DNA from: a virus
Lineage: Duplodnaviria > Heunggongvirae > Uroviricota > Caudoviricetes
Direction: 5' to 3' (one strand)
IMG/VR virus record: IMGVR_UViG_3300045988_031779
Location: 1-37,395 of that record
DNA: 37,395 bases
Shown here: in pieces, positions 29,303-37,395 of the stretch
How positions within the stretch are numbered: the first letter of the stretch is position 1
Layout: each line of letters begins with the position of its first letter
Notes under the pieces: generated by a model
What the model saw: the letters and a program-made list of their open reading frames with translations, nothing else
Databases searched by the model: none
Told to the model about the DNA's origin: nothing
Program-made: the position numbers and the translations under genes

Positions 29303-30103
29303 TTACTTGATAAATCCTGACGCCTTTCCCCGCCTGTATTCCTCCATCAGCCACTGCGCCGGTGTTATTCCCCCAAGGGTGGCGGCGTTAGGCATGCACC
29401 CGAAACTTCGCCCTGGTGGATGGTAAACGTCTCTCCCTGTGTCCGGAGGCGTACTCATGGGTTCTGGCTTTGCCTGTATGCTGATCACCGGATCGGGTAT
29501 CTGCTGTCCGGAAGCCACCTTTTTCGCCCAATCATCGAGCAGCCTGCGCGCGTGTTTCTCAACCTCAATCTCGCTAAGCTGGCGCTGATACATTGCACGG
29601 CGGGTATCACATACGACCCAGTACATAACCGGATGTCGCCACGGGAATCTTTCGGGACCACCAGGATATAAACTTTTTTCCTTGCTGTACCGGTGAAACT
29701 CCGCCATCACATCGTCAATGGTGACGCCAAGAACCATCTTGCTGTCTTTACACCACTTGATGAATTGCCCTGGCGACGGCCAGAACGGAGACTCACTGGC
29801 GCGGGCGTGGCGCATACCAGCAGAAACCTGTTCACGGGTTCGGATCCCACCTTCGGCAAACGCAGCAATCCACTGCTGTTTTGCAGCAACTTCCTGCTCT
29901 GGCGTCTTCAGGTTGGTTACCACTGCCGCCGGAAACAGTTGTTTCAGCTGTTTGAAAAGGGCATCAACAAGCCTCTCTGCTGACATGTTCACCACGTTGT
30001 CATTGTTGGTGTACTGATGCTCATAACCTGACATGCGAGAAAGGGCTTCTCCGTCACGGTTTTGTATCGCGGTAAAAACGTTGTTCACAAGAAATCCTCC
30101 CAT
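29303..30103 (-). CDS. Replication protein P-like helicase loader, 266 aa
   Basis: Segment KQQWIAAFAEGGIRTREQVSAGMRHARASESPFWPSPGQFIKWC aligns by eye with lambda P (RRQWVLAFRENGITTMEQVNAGMRVARRQNRPFLPSPGQFVAWC); directly follows the O-like gene. The start overlaps the O-like gene by 19 nt and may be downstream. Confidence 0.7.
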   Translation of the reverse strand: MGGFLVNNVFTAIQNRDGEALSRMSGYEHQYTNNDNVVNMSAERLVDALFKQLKQLFPAAVVTNLKTPEQEVAAKQQWIAAFAEGGIRTREQVSAGMRHARASESPFWPSPGQFIKWCKDSKMVLGVTIDDVMAEFHRYSKEKSLYPGGPERFPWRHPVMYWVVCDTRRAMYQRQLSEIEVEKHARRLLDDWAKKVASGQQIPDPVISIQAKPEPMSTPPDTGRDVYHPPGRSFGCMPNAATLGGITPAQWLMEEYRRGKASGFIK

Positions 30104-30924
30104 GCTTCAGGGCTGTTCCAGTGCGGAACGTTGTTATCAGGTAATGTTGATTGCTTCTGTCTGCTAATCTGCAGCCGCCTTGCCAGCTTCTGCTCCCACT
30201 GTGCCTGATGGTATGCCTTACCCTCAGCCATCCAGTAAATTCTGAACTCTGCAAGTTCCTGTGCCGTTGGCAGACTGTCCAGGTAGATCCCCTGCAATGA
30301 GCTTTTCCGAAGAAAGTCATCTGATGGCTGCCATTGTTCATGCATGACAAATTTGCCTAATTGCCCTGGCCCACCAGGAGGAACAAAGTTATTCATCACG
30401 GCGTTGTTTGCGCCGGGGTCATGATGCACAGAATCCCCGTTTTTTGTCCTGCTCTCCCTCTCTTGGTTAAATGACTGGTTATATGACTGGTTCTGGATCC
30501 CGTTTTTGGGATCATTCAACATCCCGTTTTTGGGATCATTCAACATCCCGTTTTTGGGATCATTCAACATCCCGTTTTTGGGTATATTCCCGTTTTCGGT
30601 AACATTACCGTTTTCGGGTTCATTGCCCCCCTCTCGGTTGCCTTTAATGTTCCCGTTTTTGGTTATATTAAGAGAGAAAACCCGCACTCTTTTTGTCGCT
30701 CCCTTTCTCTCCCCGGTATCTGAAATAAGCCCCATTTTCATGAGCGATATAAGTCCGGCCTGCACGGTTTTTTTATTCAGGCAAGTGTCTTTAACGAGGC
30801 GTTCTATGCTGGGGTAGCAGAGGTTATATTCATCGGCTCTGTCAGCCATCGAGAGCAGTATGAGCTTTAATGACGAGCTACCTGGATCTGTCTCCCAGGC
30901 CCAATCTGTTGCATGTCTGCTCAT
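30085..30924 (-). CDS. Replication initiator (lambda O-like, helix-turn-helix N-terminus) containing origin iterons, 279 aa
   Basis: ATG at 30924 with GGAG 8 nt upstream; N-terminal DNA-binding-like region; internal peptide repeats PKNGMLND encoded by the DNA iterons; position upstream of the P-like gene. Confidence 0.65.
   Translation of the reverse strand: MSRHATDWAWETDPGSSSLKLILLSMADRADEYNLCYPSIERLVKDTCLNKKTVQAGLISLMKMGLISDTGERKGATKRVRVFSLNITKNGNIKGNREGGNEPENGNVTENGNIPKNGMLNDPKNGMLNDPKNGMLNDPKNGIQNQSYNQSFNQERESRTKNGDSVHHDPGANNAVMNNFVPPGGPGQLGKFVMHEQWQPSDDFLRKSSLQGIYLDSLPTAQELAEFRIYWMAEGKAYHQAQWEQKLARRLQISRQKQSTLPDNNVPHWNSPEAWEDFL
30496..30664. repeat. Origin-like iteron array: core CCGTTTT(T/C)GG, four copies at 24-bp period plus three degenerate copies
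   Basis: Direct read: ATCCCGTTTTTGGGATCATTCAAC repeated with 24-bp periodicity from about 30498, then copies at about 30591, 30609 and 30653; A/T-rich segment follows. Confidence 0.7.
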
Positions 30925-31290: not shown

Positions 31291-31521
31291 TCATGAGTAG
31301 AAGAAGTATGCCAATTCTGCTTTTGAGCGCAGCCATTGTCTTGTTTTACAGGCTTTAAAAAGCCCATTCATCAATACCTTACCTGGCATTTTGCGCTTAC
31401 CTGTTAAGTGAGTCTGGATATAGTGACTCGTCGTTCCGGCTTCCTGTGCGAAGGCTTCACGCTCATCCGGAGTAAGTGCAAGCCAGTGCTTTTTGAAATC
31501 GAAATGTCCGTTATCGCTCAT
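31291..31521 (-). CDS. Cro/CII-like small helix-turn-helix regulator, 76 aa
   Basis: Divergent from the repressor gene across the operator cluster; HTH-like segment EREAFAQEAGTTSHYIQTHLTGKR. Confidence 0.5.
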   Translation of the reverse strand: MSDNGHFDFKKHWLALTPDEREAFAQEAGTTSHYIQTHLTGKRKMPGKVLMNGLFKACKTRQWLRSKAELAYFFYS

Positions 31522-31556: not shown

Positions 31557-31621
31557 TTCACCCATAAGGTAACAAAAATCAAGGATAGTTACCTATGAGG
31601 TGCATTTACCTGTTGGGTAAT
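31557..31621. promoter_or_regulatory. Cluster of three operator-like sites in the repressor/cro divergent region
   Basis: TTCACC-cataa-GGTAAC (31557..31573), GTTACC-tatga-GGTGCA (31588..31604, weakest), TTTACC-tgttg-GGTAAT (31605..31621). Confidence 0.55.
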
Positions 31622-32260: not shown

Positions 32261-32281
32261 AATCATACTTTTCAGTAAGTA

Positions 32282-32304
32282 AGCCGCCTTCTGGCGGCTT
32301 TTTT
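32282..32304 (+). terminator. Intrinsic terminator (AGCCGCC-ttct-GGCGGCT followed by TTTTTT)
   Basis: 7-bp GC stem with a 6-T tail immediately downstream of the repressor gene. Confidence 0.65.
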
Positions 32305-32351: not shown

Positions 32352-32395
32352 TTGACATCAAACCAAATACGCATAATTATTACCTCAACGGTAAC
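32352..32395 (+). promoter_or_regulatory. Rightward early promoter candidate (TTGACA, 17 bp, AATTAT) overlapped by operator-like site 14 (ATTACC-tcaac-GGTAAC, 32379..32395)
   Basis: Consensus -35 at 32352..32357, -10-like AATTAT at 32375..32380, palindrome overlapping the -10 and start region. Confidence 0.5.
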
Positions 32396-32568: not shown

Positions 32569-32868
32569 ATGAACGTTAATCAGCAGAAAAATCTTCAAAA
32601 AATCATGCTGGCATTCGACAAGGACTACCGCCTGTCAGAACAGCTATATGACCGACAAGTTGAACTGATTGAGAGCATCCGACTTCATCAACTGTCCTCA
32701 ACTTTCGACGTTGTAACAGGCAAAGGCGTTCGTCAGGAAGTACTGGAGGCTGCTAAAGACAGCCCTGAGTTCGAAGAACTGATGGATGCCTATCGGCGAG
32801 AGGCAATGGCAATTATCGCCCGCTGGGATCTGGCGGATCAGCTTGATGGACAGAGGGACGCGGCATGA
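32569..32868 (+). CDS. Hypothetical protein, 99 aa
   Basis: ATG at 32569 with GGGAGGG 8 nt upstream (track ORF starts earlier in the same frame); ATGA-coupled to the exonuclease gene. Confidence 0.5.
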   Translation: MNVNQQKNLQKIMLAFDKDYRLSEQLYDRQVELIESIRLHQLSSTFDVVTGKGVRQEVLEAAKDSPEFEELMDAYRREAMAIIARWDLADQLDGQRDAA

Positions 32869-33686
32869 AACCGGGAATTTATTTCGACATCAGCAACGAA
32901 GACTACCACGCCGGTGACGGCGTGAGTAAGTCGCAACTGGACATGGTTGCCAAGAATCCGGCGCTTCTTAAATGGGTTCAGGCAGCACCAGAAGACGAAG
33001 AGAAAAAGTCTGCACTGGATATGGGAACCGCATTGCACTGTCTGCTTCTGGAGCCTGGAGAGTTCGACAAACGCTTCATTGTTTCACCGAAATTCGATCG
33101 TCGGACGAAACAAGGTAAAGCTGACGAAGAGGCATTTCTTCGTGATGTGGCGGATATGGGGATTACGGTACTTGATGCCGAGCAGTGGCGGAAACTGGAG
33201 CTGATGCGTGATAGCGCAATGGCTCACCCGGCGGCACGCTGGATGCTGGAAGCACCTGGTTACTGCGAAGCATCAATGTACTGGAACGATGAAGATACTG
33301 GTGAGTTGTGCCGCATTCGTCCAGACAAATGGCTGAACGAGCACAACGTGATCGTCGACGTGAAAAAGGTTGCAGATATGGACCGTTTTGCACGCCACAT
33401 CGAGGAATTCCGCTACCACGTGCAGGACGCAATGTACCGCGAAGGCGCAATGAGGGTTACTGGTCAGCCGCATGGTTTTTTCTTTCTTGCCGTGAGCGAA
33501 AGCATTGATTGTGGTCGATATCCGGTACGCGTGTTCGAGCTGGATGCGCCGGATGTCGATGCCGGGCACGCTCTGTTCCGCCGGGATCTGAATACCTATC
33601 ACGAATGCCGCATCAACGATGAATGGGGCGGCGTGGAAATTATTAAACGCCCTGAGTGGGCACGCAAACAGGATATGTACGTATGA
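32865..33686 (+). CDS. Putative recombination exonuclease (RecE/exodeoxyribonuclease VIII-like PD-(D/E)XK family), 273 aa
   Basis: N-terminal GIYFDISNEDYHAGDGVSKSQLD and a D...IVDVKK core; ATGA-coupled to the downstream annealing protein gene. Confidence 0.55.
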   Translation: MKPGIYFDISNEDYHAGDGVSKSQLDMVAKNPALLKWVQAAPEDEEKKSALDMGTALHCLLLEPGEFDKRFIVSPKFDRRTKQGKADEEAFLRDVADMGITVLDAEQWRKLELMRDSAMAHPAARWMLEAPGYCEASMYWNDEDTGELCRIRPDKWLNEHNVIVDVKKVADMDRFARHIEEFRYHVQDAMYREGAMRVTGQPHGFFFLAVSESIDCGRYPVRVFELDAPDVDAGHALFRRDLNTYHECRINDEWGGVEIIKRPEWARKQDMYV

Positions 33687-34600
33687 GCAACGAAATTGCA
33701 ATCACCAATGATGTGTTGGCTATTCGGGGAATCGATGAAGTTACATGGAGCGCTCTGAAAAACAGTATTTACCCTGGGGCAAAAGATGAATCGGTAATGA
33801 TGGCAGTCGATTACTGCCGGGCGCGTCAACTCGATCCTCTTCTTAAGCCGGTACACCTGGTACCAATGAGTGTTAAAGACTCGAAGAGTGGAAAGAATGA
33901 ATGGCGCGACGTGGTCATGCCTGGCATTGGACTTTATCGCATTCAGGCCTACCGTTCCGGCGATTACGCAGGCGCTAATGAACCTGAGTTCGGTCCAGAT
34001 GTAACACAAACGCTTTCAGGCGTGGAGGTTACCTTCCCTCAGTGGTGTAAGTACACCGTCAGCAAGCGAATGGCAAGCGGGGAAATCGTAGAGTTTAGCG
34101 CCAAAGAATACTGGATTGAGAACTATGCAACTGGGGGGCGTGACACATCGGCACCAAATGCCATGTGGAAAAAGCGCCCTTATGCGCAGTTGGCAAAATG
34201 CGCAGAGGCACAGGCATTACGTAAAGCATGGCCGGAGATTGGTCAACAAGCCACAGCTGAGGAAATGGAAGGTAAATATATCGACTCACCTGACATTATT
34301 GAACGTGACGTAACTCCAAGAAGTCAGGCAAAGCACGGCACAGCATCCAGCATGAACAGTCTGATCAACGCTAAAACAGTGAAAAAGCCTGATGAGCAAA
34401 CGCGTAAAGCGGATAGCCGTGATCCAGAAGAAATGCTGATGGCCTTTACCAGCGCAGCGATGAATTACAGCACTGTCTCCGAACTGGATAAGGCTTACAA
34501 ATACATTGCACAAAAACTTTCAGATGATGACGAACTGCTGGCAAAAGCCACCGACGTTTACAGCGTTCGTCGGGAAGAATTAAACGAAACATCTATGTAA
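33683..34600 (+). CDS. Single-strand annealing protein of the Bet(Red-beta)/RecT superfamily, about 305 aa
   Basis: By-eye alignment with lambda Bet: DPLLKPVHLVP vs NPWTKEIYAFP and WKKRPYAQLAKCAEAQALRKAWPEIG vs WQSHPKRMLRHKAMIQCARLAFGFAG. ATG at 33683 overlaps the upstream stop. Confidence 0.7.
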   Translation: MSNEIAITNDVLAIRGIDEVTWSALKNSIYPGAKDESVMMAVDYCRARQLDPLLKPVHLVPMSVKDSKSGKNEWRDVVMPGIGLYRIQAYRSGDYAGANEPEFGPDVTQTLSGVEVTFPQWCKYTVSKRMASGEIVEFSAKEYWIENYATGGRDTSAPNAMWKKRPYAQLAKCAEAQALRKAWPEIGQQATAEEMEGKYIDSPDIIERDVTPRSQAKHGTASSMNSLINAKTVKKPDEQTRKADSRDPEEMLMAFTSAAMNYSTVSELDKAYKYIAQKLSDDDELLAKATDVYSVRREELNETSM

Positions 34601-34649: not shown

Positions 34650-34898
34650 ATGAAAGGTGCATTAGGTAAGAAGGAACTCCTGGCGGTGGTGCCACTGTCA
34701 TGGAGCACTATCGACCGTATGGAGCGCGCAGGGGAATTTCCTAAACGCTGGTATATCACCGATAAACGCTGCGCATGGAACCGTGACGAAGTTGAGCGTT
34801 GGCTTGATGAACGTCAGGCAGCAAGCCCGGCAGAGTTCCAGGGTAAAAAACCTCCTGTTCAGCAACGTGTATATCGTCCCGTGAGCAACGCTGCATGA
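34650..34898 (+). CDS. AlpA-like DNA-binding protein, candidate excisionase, 82 aa
   Basis: Pattern LSWSTIDRMERAGEFPKRWYITDKRCAWNRDEVERWL matches the AlpA/Xis-type winged-helix family; located near the integrase. Confidence 0.6.
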   Translation: MKGALGKKELLAVVPLSWSTIDRMERAGEFPKRWYITDKRCAWNRDEVERWLDERQAASPAEFQGKKPPVQQRVYRPVSNAA

Positions 34899-35007: not shown

Positions 35008-35307
35008 GTGAGAAAGTTAAGCCGACTTGAAAAATACCACATGAATAAGGTTTCAATGCGCAGTCCGTCAAAGATTGTCGCCGTTACTCCTGCGGCGATA
35101 GAGATCGAAAAACGCGCGATTGAAAGAGAGAAAAAAGGGCAGTTCCGCATTGCCGCTCACCTTTGGCTTCAGTGTATGGATGTTGCTTCTGGTGATGTTG
35201 AACGTGCAAGGATCGCGGTTCGCAGGGACCAATGTATCACAAAAGGTAACGGCCTTCGCCGTGGCGACTATAGCGGCATAGGATGTTGTGGGGTGGTTTA
35301 TGACTAA
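35008..35307 (+). CDS. Hypothetical protein, 99 aa (start uncertain)
   Basis: Track ORF from GTG 35008; alternative ATG at 35041; overlaps the methyltransferase start by 8 nt. Confidence 0.4.
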   Translation: MRKLSRLEKYHMNKVSMRSPSKIVAVTPAAIEIEKRAIEREKKGQFRIAAHLWLQCMDVASGDVERARIAVRRDQCITKGNGLRRGDYSGIGCCGVVYD

Positions 35308-35950
35308 GAAATACACACTAATCTATGCAGATCCACCCTGGGTATACCGGGACAAAGCCGCAGATGGTAATCGCGGTGCCGGTTTTAAATATCCAGTTAT
35401 GAGTGTGCTGGATATCTGCCGCCTTCCTGTGTGGGATTTGACCGCTGAAAACTGTCTGTTGGCCATGTGGTGGGTGCCAACACAACCACTCGAAGCACTA
35501 AAAGTTGTTGAAGCCTGGGGATTCCGTCTGATGACGATGAAGGGCTTCACGTGGATAAAATGTGGTAGTCGACAACCAGATAAACTGGTTATGGGTATGG
35601 GACACATGACTCGCGCCAATAGTGAAGATTGCCTGTTTGCGGTAAAGGGAAAACTACCTACGCGCATTAATGCAGGGATCGTTCAGTCATTTACCGCACC
35701 GCGGCTTGAGCATTCAAGAAAGCCAGATATCGTTCGTGAAAAACTTGTGCAATTATTAGGCGATGTTTCTCGCATTGAACTGTTCGCCCGCCAGACGTCT
35801 CATGGCTTTGATGTTTGGGGTAATCAGTGCGAAGACCCGGCAGTGCAACTACACCCTGGATACGCGTTGGATATTGGCGGATTAACAAATGCATTCAGCA
35901 ATGCTCCGCTGTCACCAACAGACATCCAGGGGCGGGAGCGTGCTGCATGA
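35300..35950 (+). CDS. MT-A70-like DNA N6-adenine methyltransferase (orphan), 216 aa
   Basis: Hallmark LIYADPPW motif near the N-terminus; start preferred at ATG 35300; no adjacent restriction endonuclease gene. Confidence 0.7.
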   Translation: MTKKYTLIYADPPWVYRDKAADGNRGAGFKYPVMSVLDICRLPVWDLTAENCLLAMWWVPTQPLEALKVVEAWGFRLMTMKGFTWIKCGSRQPDKLVMGMGHMTRANSEDCLFAVKGKLPTRINAGIVQSFTAPRLEHSRKPDIVREKLVQLLGDVSRIELFARQTSHGFDVWGNQCEDPAVQLHPGYALDIGGLTNAFSNAPLSPTDIQGRERAA

Positions 35951-36141
35951 ACAGGGCATCACCAGCAGATTTAAGAAAATGCCTTGAAACTGCAAACATG
36001 CTTGCACACAGCGGGATCAGGTTTGTTCCAATTCCCGCTGTCACTGATGCTGAATTTGCAACACTGTCAGCAATATTCGAAAACAAAATTGAATCACTGG
36101 CAGCAGAAGCAGAGATGGAAGAAAATCAGCAGAACTATTAA
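35947..36141 (+). CDS. Hypothetical small protein, 64 aa
   Basis: ATG at 35947 in ATGA overlap with the methyltransferase stop; track ORF 35827..36141 is the same frame extended into the methyltransferase gene. Confidence 0.4.
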   Translation: MNRASPADLRKCLETANMLAHSGIRFVPIPAVTDAEFATLSAIFENKIESLAAEAEMEENQQNY

Positions 36142-36144
36142 ACG

Positions 36145-37395
36145 TTATTCCCCCGCCATCCACTTCTCAAACTTCGACGGGGAGAACGGAATCAGATCCG
36201 TATGCTCCCCGTCAATCCATGAATCAATCATATCGGCCCACTGCTGCAACATGTAGGCGCGCTGTCTGGCGTATTCCGCTTTGTTATATACGGCGCGCAC
36301 ACCTTTCTGCTCATGTGCCAGAGCCTTTTCAATCCAGTCTGAAGGATAACCAGCCTCATGCAACAACGTACTGGCTGTACGGCGCATATCATGTACAGTG
36401 AAGTCCTGAATATGCTCACCATCTTCATTTATTATTTTCACCGTTCTGTCGATCAGAGAGTTCAGCGCGGCATTAGATAATGGCTTCCGGAAATTGTAAC
36501 GACCAGGAACCAGATATTCACTTCCACCAGCGCACATCTGCAACCCGACCAATATATCCTGTGCCTGTTTAGGCAGGTAAATAACGTGCGCCCGGCTTCC
36601 CTTCATGCGGTCTGGAGGAATTGTCCATGTCCATTTTTTAAAATCTATTTCATCCCACGTTGCATTGGTGAATTCGCCCTTACGAACCATAGTGATAAGC
36701 ACCAGTTTTAAAGCCATTTTCATAGTGCCCATAGCACCAATGGCATCCAGCGTGCGGAAGAACAGGCCAATTTCTTCTGGTGTCAGTGTTCGCTCTCGTG
36801 GTTTAAATATGGCGATAGACGAAGGTTTAATGTCAGCCGCAGGATTAAACAAACCATGACCACGGTCATTGGCGTGACGGTATACGCTACTGATGATCTC
36901 CCTGGCCTGCACTGCTGTTGCCCGACCACCGCGTTCGACAATCCGGTCACACAAATCACGAACCATCGATGTGGTAATTTCAGCCATCATTTTGTTGCCA
37001 AGAACCGGAAGTATGTCACGGTCGATCACCGCCTGCTTCATTGCGCGGGTACTGTCAGCCAGGATGACGTGTTTCATATAACTGTCGGTATGTACCGCAA
37101 ACGTCTCGGCACCACGAATCTTTTTGATACCGTCACGTTTAGCCGCAGCCGGTGACTGGCCTGCTTTAAGCAGCTTCTTTGCAGCAATCAGTTCTTCTCG
37201 CGCTTCTGCCAGGCTGATACCGTCACGCCCATACTGCCCGATTACCAGTGTTTCGCGGCGACCGTTGATACGGTAGTCATAGCGAAACGAGACCGTGCCT
37301 GACGTAAGCACAGCTACATACAGCCCGTCACGATCGGAGACCTTGTACAGTTTGTCCTGCGGCTTGAGGTTTTTTAATTTTGTATCGGTAAGCAC
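36145..37395 (-). CDS. int: Tyrosine integrase (P4-type), N-terminus at window edge
   Basis: N-terminus (V/M)LTDTKLKNLKPQDKLYKVSDRDGLYVAV typical of P4-family integrases; C-terminal catalytic HDMRRT and conserved Tyr region. First codon is GTG at the last window bases, so the true start may lie just outside. Confidence 0.85.
   Translation of the reverse strand: MLTDTKLKNLKPQDKLYKVSDRDGLYVAVLTSGTVSFRYDYRINGRRETLVIGQYGRDGISLAEAREELIAAKKLLKAGQSPAAAKRDGIKKIRGAETFAVHTDSYMKHVILADSTRAMKQAVIDRDILPVLGNKMMAEITTSMVRDLCDRIVERGGRATAVQAREIISSVYRHANDRGHGLFNPAADIKPSSIAIFKPRERTLTPEEIGLFFRTLDAIGAMGTMKMALKLVLITMVRKGEFTNATWDEIDFKKWTWTIPPDRMKGSRAHVIYLPKQAQDILVGLQMCAGGSEYLVPGRYNFRKPLSNAALNSLIDRTVKIINEDGEHIQDFTVHDMRRTASTLLHEAGYPSDWIEKALAHEQKGVRAVYNKAEYARQRAYMLQQWADMIDSWIDGEHTDLIPFSPSKFEKWMAGE

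Follow-up and report, generated by a model that had tools for sequence, protein, structure and literature searches.

Introduction

The best described relatives of the methyltransferase analysed here are encoded by Stx phages. Gong, Chakraborty and Koudelka (Nucleic Acids Res 52:856; PMC10810198) studied M.EcoPA8orf6770P, an MT-A70 protein with a DPPW motif whose gene lies near the integrase gene. The enzyme purified alone was almost inactive on DNA, including dam− DNA, and on RNA. It co-purified 1:1 with gp6, the product of the upstream gene, designated PNB-2, and in a SAM-consumption assay this complex preferred 16S rRNA or the 30S subunit; the modified base of 16S rRNA was not mapped. A C-terminal tail of approximately 27 residues was suggested to be possibly needed for binding of PNB-2. 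The methyltransferase gene increased spontaneous induction and virulence, which was not the case for a DPPW→APPA mutant, and it was reportedly transcribed in lysogens near the stationary phase (PMC10810198).

A different specificity has been assigned to M.EcoGV of Escherichia coli O104:H4. Forde et al. (PMC6602927) describe this enzyme as GATC-specific by PacBio sequencing. According to PMC10810198, overproduced M.EcoGV is said to methylate GATC in vivo, is highly similar to M.EcoPA8orf6770P and has relatives that are entered in REBASE as GATC methylases. The substrate of prophage MT-A70 enzymes is disputed, with GATC in DNA on one side and 16S rRNA, reached via a partner protein, on the other.

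Two further relatives, encoded by phage phiV10 and Salmonella phage epsilon15, are annotated, and the records and literature examined contained no experimental characterization of either enzyme. Here we describe the counterpart in a 37,395-nucleotide stretch of Caudoviricetes DNA (IMG/VR record IMGVR_UViG_3300045988_031779, positions 1 to 37,395), referred to below as the window.

Results

The methyltransferase gene belongs to a phiV10/epsilon15-type prophage

The open reading frame encoding the methyltransferase extends from position 35288 to 35950 on the plus strand. The ATG at 35300 was taken as the start codon, as annotated in phiV10 and RefSeq and backed by the alignment of homologues. 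The deduced protein matches the whole Pfam MT-A70 model, in agreement with the preliminary description of this DNA as encoding a DPPW-bearing N6-adenine methyltransferase. Coordinates of this gene, its neighbours and the putative regulatory sites are compiled in Table 1.

Table 1. Features of the methyltransferase gene, its operon and the adjacent immunity region (window coordinates)
Feature	Position	Strand	Basis or remark
cro-like gene	31291-31521	-	divergent from repressor gene, common intergenic region
Prophage repressor candidate, 194 aa	31676..32260	+	two HTH motifs per phiV10 annotation
Terminator-like hairpin and T-run	32281..32300	+	directly 3′ of repressor gene; phiV10 terminator annotated at the same place
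Two operator-like palindromes TTACC-N5-GGTAA	32318-32332, 32380-32394	+	bracket the promoter-like site; second abuts the -10 hexamer
Promoter-like site TTGACA-17-AATTAT	32352..32380	+	10/12 consensus matches; candidate PL-type early promoter
RecE-like exonuclease	32865-33686	+	Pfam DUF3799; PHROG 412 and 2449 (with RecT)
RecT annealing protein	33683-34600	+	Pfam RecT; PHROG 412 and 2449 (with RecE-like gene)
AlpA-family excisionase/regulator	34650..34898	+	Pfam Phage_AlpA 3.1e-05; PHROG 66
Predicted membrane peptide, 38 aa	34895..35011	+	counterpart of phiV10 p35
PerC-family small protein, 88 aa	35041..35307	+	Pfam PerC 6e-07; PHROG 868 5.7e-62; alternative GTG start 35008
MT-A70 family N6-adenine methyltransferase CDS	35300..35950	+	216 aa plus stop; phiV10 gp33 orthologue
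Motif IV codons, D11-P-P-W14 (catalytic, adenine-binding)	35330..35341	+	sequence; residues 11-14
Variable loop, residues 85-103 (IKCGSRQPDKLVMGMGHMT)	35552..35608	+	alignment; same type as Stx-phage enzymes
C-terminal cofactor-binding segment, residues 158-176 (RIELFARQTSHGFDVWGNQ)	35771..35827	+	conservation in 109 homologues
Lineage-specific C-terminal tail, residues 188-216	35861..35947	+	unalignable to Stx-phage enzyme tail
DUF1382 protein, 64 aa	35947..36141	+	Pfam DUF1382 1.8e-30; 51% identical to PA8 gp4
P4-type tyrosine integrase	36145..37395	-	convergent with early operon; window ends at int start codon

Over the 2.8 kb around the gene, identity amounts to 98–99.5% with phiV10-type phages (genus Uetakevirus) and to approximately 80% with epsilon15, and the window is collinear with phiV10 except for three replaced blocks. 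The encoded enzyme shares 96.8% amino acid identity with phiV10 gp33 (PhiV10p33, ‘DNA methyltransferase’), from which it differs in nothing material, and the order alpA, membrane peptide, perC, methyltransferase, DUF1382 and convergent int is the same in both. The enzyme of epsilon15 (epsilon15_p10; also Uetakevirus) is 77.6% identical and encoded in the same operon; it ends in a short tail (192 aa), a further small open reading frame lies between perC and the methyltransferase gene, and the downstream gene is a different one.

Among 5426 complete E. coli genomes the gene is found in 538 (about 10%), annotated as ‘MT-A70 family methyltransferase’ and flanked by a ‘PerC family transcriptional regulator’ and a ‘DUF1382 family protein’; the reading frame is full length in 537 genomes. 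Since both the phiV10 gp33 record and these 538 genomes annotate the gene, the feature is already known. An E. coli prophage of the phiV10/epsilon15 type carries it as an intact, previously annotated adenine methyltransferase gene; with close homologues that have been studied experimentally, it adds little as a finding in itself.

Family, conserved motifs and selection

The protein matched Pfam MT-A70 (PF05063) over profile positions 1–172 of 172 with an E value of 3.9e-22 and 79.4 bits, the curated cut-off being 23.9 bits. MT-A70 was its sole Pfam match. It also matched PHROG 359 ‘DNA methyltransferase’ (1.3e-119) and the PADLOC model MTase_II for Type II methyltransferases (2.1e-78), and no model of NCBIfam matched it. 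Judged by sequence comparison, these family matches lie far beyond chance. Searches of PDB sequences returned Tetrahymena MTA1 (6e-13) and human METTL3 (3e-5); the DPPW of the window enzyme aligned to the DPPW of MTA1 and its RIELFAR stretch to the equivalent MTA1 segment.

In an alignment of 109 homologues G174 does not vary, and conservation reaches at least 90% at DPPW as well as at R158, E160, L161, F162, R164, G169 and W173. The motifs follow the permuted order, with DPPW near the N-terminus and ELFAR...WGN later at residues 160–175. Incomplete catalytic motifs on alignment had been named beforehand as a reason to give up the assignment; they proved to be complete. Comparison of the core with the copies of phage PA8, epsilon15 and a Serratia prophage gave dN/dS values of 0.057, 0.070 and 0.079, respectively, which indicates that it is under strong purifying selection.

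Predicted fold, variable loop and C-terminal tail

A first AlphaFold2 model, built on a 22-sequence alignment, reached a pLDDT of 57 and was discarded in favour of a model built on the 109-sequence alignment. The latter had a pLDDT of 83.1 and a pTM of 0.81, with the last approximately 25 residues uncertain. The best matches of this model in a Foldseek search of the PDB were METTL3 (E 1.6e-13, TM 0.66–0.72) and Tetrahymena MTA1, with TM scores of 0.6–0.72 overall. We are confident that the predicted fold is METTL3/MTA1-like. Both alignment and model describe a bare catalytic core of approximately 190 residues that has no separate target-recognition domain.

Residues 85–103 form a variable loop that is a candidate for substrate contact. 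In the window enzyme this loop (KCGSRQPDKLVMGMG) is of the Stx-phage type, and epsilon15 and the copies of the nin region carry another loop, HKTNKxKGNSAIGMG. Model confidence is lower around residues 91–110 (block mean pLDDT 75 and 65). It also drops in the tail, from about 66 to 43 over residues 190–216.

Comparison with the Stx-phage enzymes

For comparison we used the phages PA8, PA28, P13771 and the O104:H4 phage P13374. Over residues 1–187 the window enzyme is 83.4% identical to PA8 gp5 (M.EcoPA8orf6770P; Stx2a phage) and 82.9% identical to the methylase of P13374. M.EcoPA8orf6770P and M.EcoGV share with it DPPW, the cofactor motifs and the type of loop 85–103, and their genes are likewise proximal to int and followed by a DUF1382 gene. 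The preliminary description had left the target motif open; these enzymes with an 83% identical core provide two candidates for it, GATC, as recorded for M.EcoGV, and 16S rRNA, as reported for M.EcoPA8orf6770P with its partner (PMC10810198, PMC6602927).

The Stx-phage enzymes belong to Sepvirinae Stx phages, whereas the window enzyme belongs to a Uetakevirus-type phage, and two differences concern the very elements implicated in the rRNA activity. First, the BLASTP alignments with the Stx-phage enzymes end at residue 187, and the C-terminal tails beyond this point are unrelated, so that the window enzyme does not possess the approximately 27-residue tail of the PNB-2 complex. Second, PA8 carries upstream of the methylase gene PNB-2, a predicted winged-helix protein preceded by a terminator and a promoter of its own, while in the window the upstream gene encodes a PerC-family protein and no terminator is present there. 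No homologue of PNB-2 was found in the window. PerC was examined as an equivalent of PNB-2 and rejected, as BLASTP between the two returned nothing.

An RNA target was not among the possibilities considered in the preliminary description.

Gene neighbourhood and orphan status

The preliminary description had placed the gene next to the integrase gene and had seen no restriction gene adjacent to it. The first is essentially right: between the methyltransferase gene and convergent int there is just the 64-codon DUF1382 gene (35947-36141), whose stop codon is 3 nt from that of int. The second holds as well. The neighbours encode PerC, DUF1382, AlpA, RecT, the RecE-like exonuclease and Int, and neither these nor the scanned open reading frames not shared with phiV10 matched a restriction nuclease or defence model of Pfam, PHROG or PADLOC. 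The remainder of the window is collinear with phiV10, in whose record no restriction enzyme is annotated. Among the reading frames scanned, a hidden restriction or defence partner was thus rejected, and no cognate endonuclease gene of a Type II restriction-modification system lies beside the methyltransferase gene.

Elsewhere, homologues were found in four kinds of phage surroundings. In a P22-like nin region the gene is flanked by NinB and NinD, and in prophages of Serratia and Salmonella it follows the replication genes and precedes Q. In Klebsiella it comes behind DnaB and a ParB-HTH gene and adjoins a PARIS-like RloB/AAA_21 pair, and in the fourth setting it lies 3′ of a lysis cassette. 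No restriction-modification nuclease was present beside the homologues in any of them. The methyltransferase gene forms an orphan cassette, complete in itself, which moves among the early regions of temperate phages.

The two small neighbours were considered as partners. PerC as a dedicated partner was rejected, because other genes separate perC from the methyltransferase gene in epsilon15 and in Cedecea and Enterobacter prophages. The DUF1382 family also has a match in the exo-xis region of lambda, probably orf61. DUF1382 as an obligate partner was likewise rejected, since lambda, 434 and BP-4795 carry it with no methyltransferase listed beside it and it is missing next to many homologues of the enzyme.

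Operon structure and predicted timing of expression

The methyltransferase gene is the penultimate gene in a series that abut or overlap (recE/recT-like, alpA/xis, perC, methyltransferase, DUF1382). The overlaps amount to 8 nt between perC and the methyltransferase gene and 4 nt between the latter and the DUF1382 gene, where the sequence ATGA places the start codon of DUF1382 in the methyltransferase stop codon.

The only strong promoter-like site upstream of this operon is located at 32352-32380, and between it and position 36141 no terminator-like site was found on the plus strand. The hairpin between this site and the repressor gene would shield the operon from transcripts of the repressor gene. 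The palindrome TTACC-N5-GGTAA that brackets the promoter-like site occurs 14 times in the window compared with an expectation of 0.64; of these copies, 11 are intergenic. The interval that separates the repressor gene from the cro-like gene holds copies at 31558 and 31606.

Because the operon has the orientation of the repressor gene and includes genes of recombination and excision (recE/recT, xis-like), we regard it as the counterpart of the leftward PL operon of lambda. The replication genes are on the cro side of the immunity region. The preliminary description as a rightward early operon thus applies to the plus strand of the window coordinates but not to the lambda sense of the word, in which the operon is leftward and PL-type. 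It had further left the timing of expression open, for which the promoter-like site flanked by immunity-region palindromes permits a prediction. From a PL-type promoter with operators matching those of the immunity region, the methyltransferase gene would be silent in the lysogen, and its product would appear early upon induction or infection. The promoter and the operators are consensus matches only, and the reported transcription of the Stx-phage homologue in lysogens near the stationary phase (PMC10810198) speaks against this timing.

Comparison with other adenine methyltransferases

METTL3, an RNA m6A writer, and Tetrahymena MTA1, a DNA 6mA methyltransferase acting on ApT, have the permuted Rossmann fold and the DPPW site in common with the window enzyme. 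The Foldseek matches (E approximately 1e-13, TM 0.6–0.7) go along with only 17–26% identity. Both are obligate heterodimers with an inactive paralogue and have nucleic-acid-binding subunits; the window encodes no such paralogue.

The Dam methylases of E. coli and T4 and M.EcoVT2Dam possibly form the same product, G-m6A-TC, if the assignment of M.EcoGV carries over to the window enzyme. All of them are orphans, as is the window enzyme, and are carried by enterobacterial phages. Dam enzymes belong to the alpha class, a different family with a different motif order, and the window enzyme, with MT-A70 as its sole Pfam match and its catalytic motif at the N-terminus, is not a member of this family; beyond the Rossmann core it is analogous rather than homologous to them.

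M.EcoGII resembles the window enzyme in being a prophage-borne orphan adenine methylase and is silent in the lysogen (PMC5778455). Identity with M.EcoGII was rejected. That enzyme, of 349 aa with DPPY and FxGxG motifs, is a beta-class methylase with a central target-recognition domain (PMC5778455), in contrast to the window enzyme with its 216 aa and DPPW.

Discussion

A proposed Dam-like orphan methylase used in lytic growth

By analogy with M.EcoGV, we give somewhat better than even chances to the reading that a functional orphan N6-adenine methyltransferase is made in lytic growth and methylates DNA at GATC in a Dam-like manner. The product would be a SAM-dependent enzyme with the MT-A70 (class beta, permuted) fold, encoded by an autonomous orphan cassette and not by half of a restriction-modification system. 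It would be synthesized from the second-to-last gene of a translationally coupled early operon of approximately 3.8 kb under a PL-type promoter. The enzyme would flip out the target adenine and methylate it at N6; most likely its substrate is DNA, with GATC as the probable site as for M.EcoGV. In this way the DNA of the rapidly replicating phage could be kept fully methylated. The benefit might consist in protection against restriction enzymes cleaving GATC or in effects on replication, mismatch repair or packaging. The sequence comparisons establish the family, the intact motifs, the purifying selection, the lack of a restriction partner, the place in the operon and the homology to the enzymes studied before; when the enzyme is made, what it methylates and what the phage gains are inferred from them.

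We favour GATC in DNA as the target because an 83% identical enzyme with the same type of loop has a clean motif call, and because this phage lacks both the partner and the tail on which the rRNA activity reportedly depended. Several observations weigh on the other side. The purified M.EcoPA8orf6770P was nearly inactive on DNA and, bound to PNB-2, preferred 16S rRNA and the 30S subunit (PMC10810198). All solved relatives, namely METTL3 and MTA1, need a partner subunit. Moreover, a GATC methylase seems redundant in a Dam+ host.

RNA as a possible substrate

An alternative view takes the protein as catalytic subunit of an RNA methyltransferase, in which a small phage protein guides the MT-A70 core to the 16S rRNA of the 30S subunit. 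We consider this unlikely for the window enzyme, and equally so the effect that belongs to it, namely that the modification alters translation and increases spontaneous induction of the prophage. It is nevertheless kept in play by the dependence of all structural relatives on a partner and by the inactivity of the homologue when purified by itself. The 83% identity of the core to M.EcoPA8orf6770P agrees with it, as do the substrate preference of the 1:1 complex, the loss of the effect on induction and virulence upon exchange of DPPW for APPA (PMC10810198), the place of the RNA writer METTL3 and the partner-dependent MTA1 as nearest folds and the translational coupling of the upstream perC to the methyltransferase gene. 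In the window, however, no PNB-2 homologue is encoded, PerC is dissimilar to PNB-2 and the tail suggested for PNB-2 binding is unalignable. The separation of perC from the methyltransferase gene in epsilon15 and in the Cedecea and Enterobacter prophages, the many homologues with neither PerC nor DUF1382, and the occurrence of DUF1382 in lambda and other phages with no methyltransferase listed beside it also argue against this view. In addition, the evidence for the homologue stops short of the modified rRNA base (PMC10810198).

Possible DNA targets other than GATC

We think it quite unlikely that the enzyme methylates adenine in DNA at a target other than GATC, or at a short or relaxed one, and thereby masks many host restriction sites on progeny DNA. 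A bare catalytic core of approximately 190 residues that has no separate target-recognition domain would fit such a specificity, 17% of the core residues differ from M.EcoGV, and non-specific prophage adenine methylases do exist, for example M.EcoGII (PMC5778455). M.EcoGII, however, comes from a different family, as its length and its DPPY and FxGxG motifs show, while the window protein is MT-A70 only in Pfam. Further, loop 85–103 is of the M.EcoGV type, and the REBASE relatives are entered as GATC-specific.

A possible portable catalytic module

Decidedly improbable, in our estimation, is a more general arrangement in which the approximately 190-residue MT-A70 core serves as a portable catalytic module, with an adjacent small phage protein determining the substrate. 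This would be PNB-2 in Stx phages, leading to 16S rRNA, and another adaptor here, PerC-like or the orf61-like DUF1382 protein, together with the lineage-specific tail. If this were true, the prophage would write m6A on host RNA or on specific DNA sites and so tune its own induction instead of evading restriction. Irrespective of the reading, the window variant is a natural comparator for the Stx-phage enzymes: the core is kept, and the reported partner gene and the interaction tail are both missing. It could tell whether the MT-A70 core by itself acts as a Dam-like DNA methylase, which bears on the control of induction and virulence in Stx phages.

That the gene is an inactive or decaying remnant, be it a METTL14-like pseudoenzyme or the remaining half of a restriction-modification system since lost, is scarcely credible: inactive eukaryotic MT-A70 paralogues such as METTL14 and MTA9 exist (PMC7544214) and the homologue showed hardly any activity when purified by itself (PMC10810198), but the enzyme retains DPPW and the cofactor-binding residues, all of them intact and conserved, dN/dS is approximately 0.06, the reading frame is maintained at full length across the E. 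coli genomes and no nuclease relic is adjacent.

Occurrence of GATC in the window

GATC occurs 145 times in the window, compared with 145 expected from base composition, and reaches 0.77 of the Markov expectation. The site is neither enriched nor strongly avoided, and the counts do not discriminate between the substrate readings. The sole cluster of GATC sites in the window coincides with an origin-like iteron array.

Repeated sites in the window

The 15-bp palindrome TTACC-N5-GGTAA, with up to one mismatch allowed, occurs 14 times in the window compared with 0.64 copies expected, and 11 of these copies are intergenic. Sites were found in the immunity region, on both sides of a Bro-N gene and between replication-side genes, and the small terminase gene contains a neighbouring pair within its 5′ end. 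Such a distribution suggests that many promoters are controlled by one regulator, or that the palindrome also functions at the packaging site.

A second kind of repeat, an origin-like iteron array, is built from the 24-bp unit ATCCCGTTTTTGGGATCATTCAAC, which is present in 3.6 perfect copies. Every full copy contains one GATC, and the array is the sole GATC cluster in the window, which would be relevant if the methyltransferase is Dam-like.

Coordinates of repeated sites and the associated gene in the window
Feature	Position	Strand	Remarks
Origin-like iteron array	30497-30582		degenerate copies to 30624; within replication-initiator gene
Replication-initiator gene	30085-30924	minus	houses the iteron array
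TTACC-N5-GGTAA copies	858, 1978, 2071, 3138, 20868, 24061, 24079, 29188, 29250, 31221, 31558, 31606, 32318, 32380

Organization of the early operon

The RecE-like exonuclease and RecT are encoded by two separate, overlapping ORFs (32865-34600), as is also the case in a Cedecea prophage (L021). In contrast, the phiV10 record (L002, 29722-31482) annotates one fused protein of 586 aa, and positions 33708-34352 of the window showed no alignment to phiV10. The PerC-family protein (35041-35307) is kept in the early operon of epsilon15-like prophages of E. coli, Salmonella, Cedecea and Enterobacter. It belongs to the same family as PerC and Pch, which activate virulence genes in EPEC/EHEC, and could mediate cross-talk with host virulence regulation.

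At the end of the operon, 3 nt separate the stop codons of DUF1382 and the integrase, which lie on opposite strands (36141-36145). No terminator-like site was found, and transcription of the early operon would read through antisense into int. In epsilon15, unlike at this junction, an RNase III site is annotated in the corresponding gap.

Neighbours of related methyltransferases

In an Enterobacter hormaechei prophage (L023, 3498-4717), the MT-A70 variant P0074 carries an insertion of approximately 24 residues in the variable loop, and an overlapping upstream gene of 175 aa shows a weak PD-(D/E)XK (PDDEXK_5) match; in this lineage the two may form a nuclease–methylase pair. In a Klebsiella prophage (L011, 6656-8415), a RloB-like and AAA_15/AAA_21 ATPase gene pair, resembling PARIS defence, directly follows the MT-A70 gene on the opposite strand. 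The Stx phages PA28 and PA8 have nearly identical methyltransferases but different proteins encoded upstream (L018, 2851-3081, in PA28 and L020, 2851-3282, in PA8), which share only their last approximately 21 residues (...LYIDEFENAL). This common C-terminus could reflect a recombination joint, or it could be a short peptide that binds the methyltransferase.
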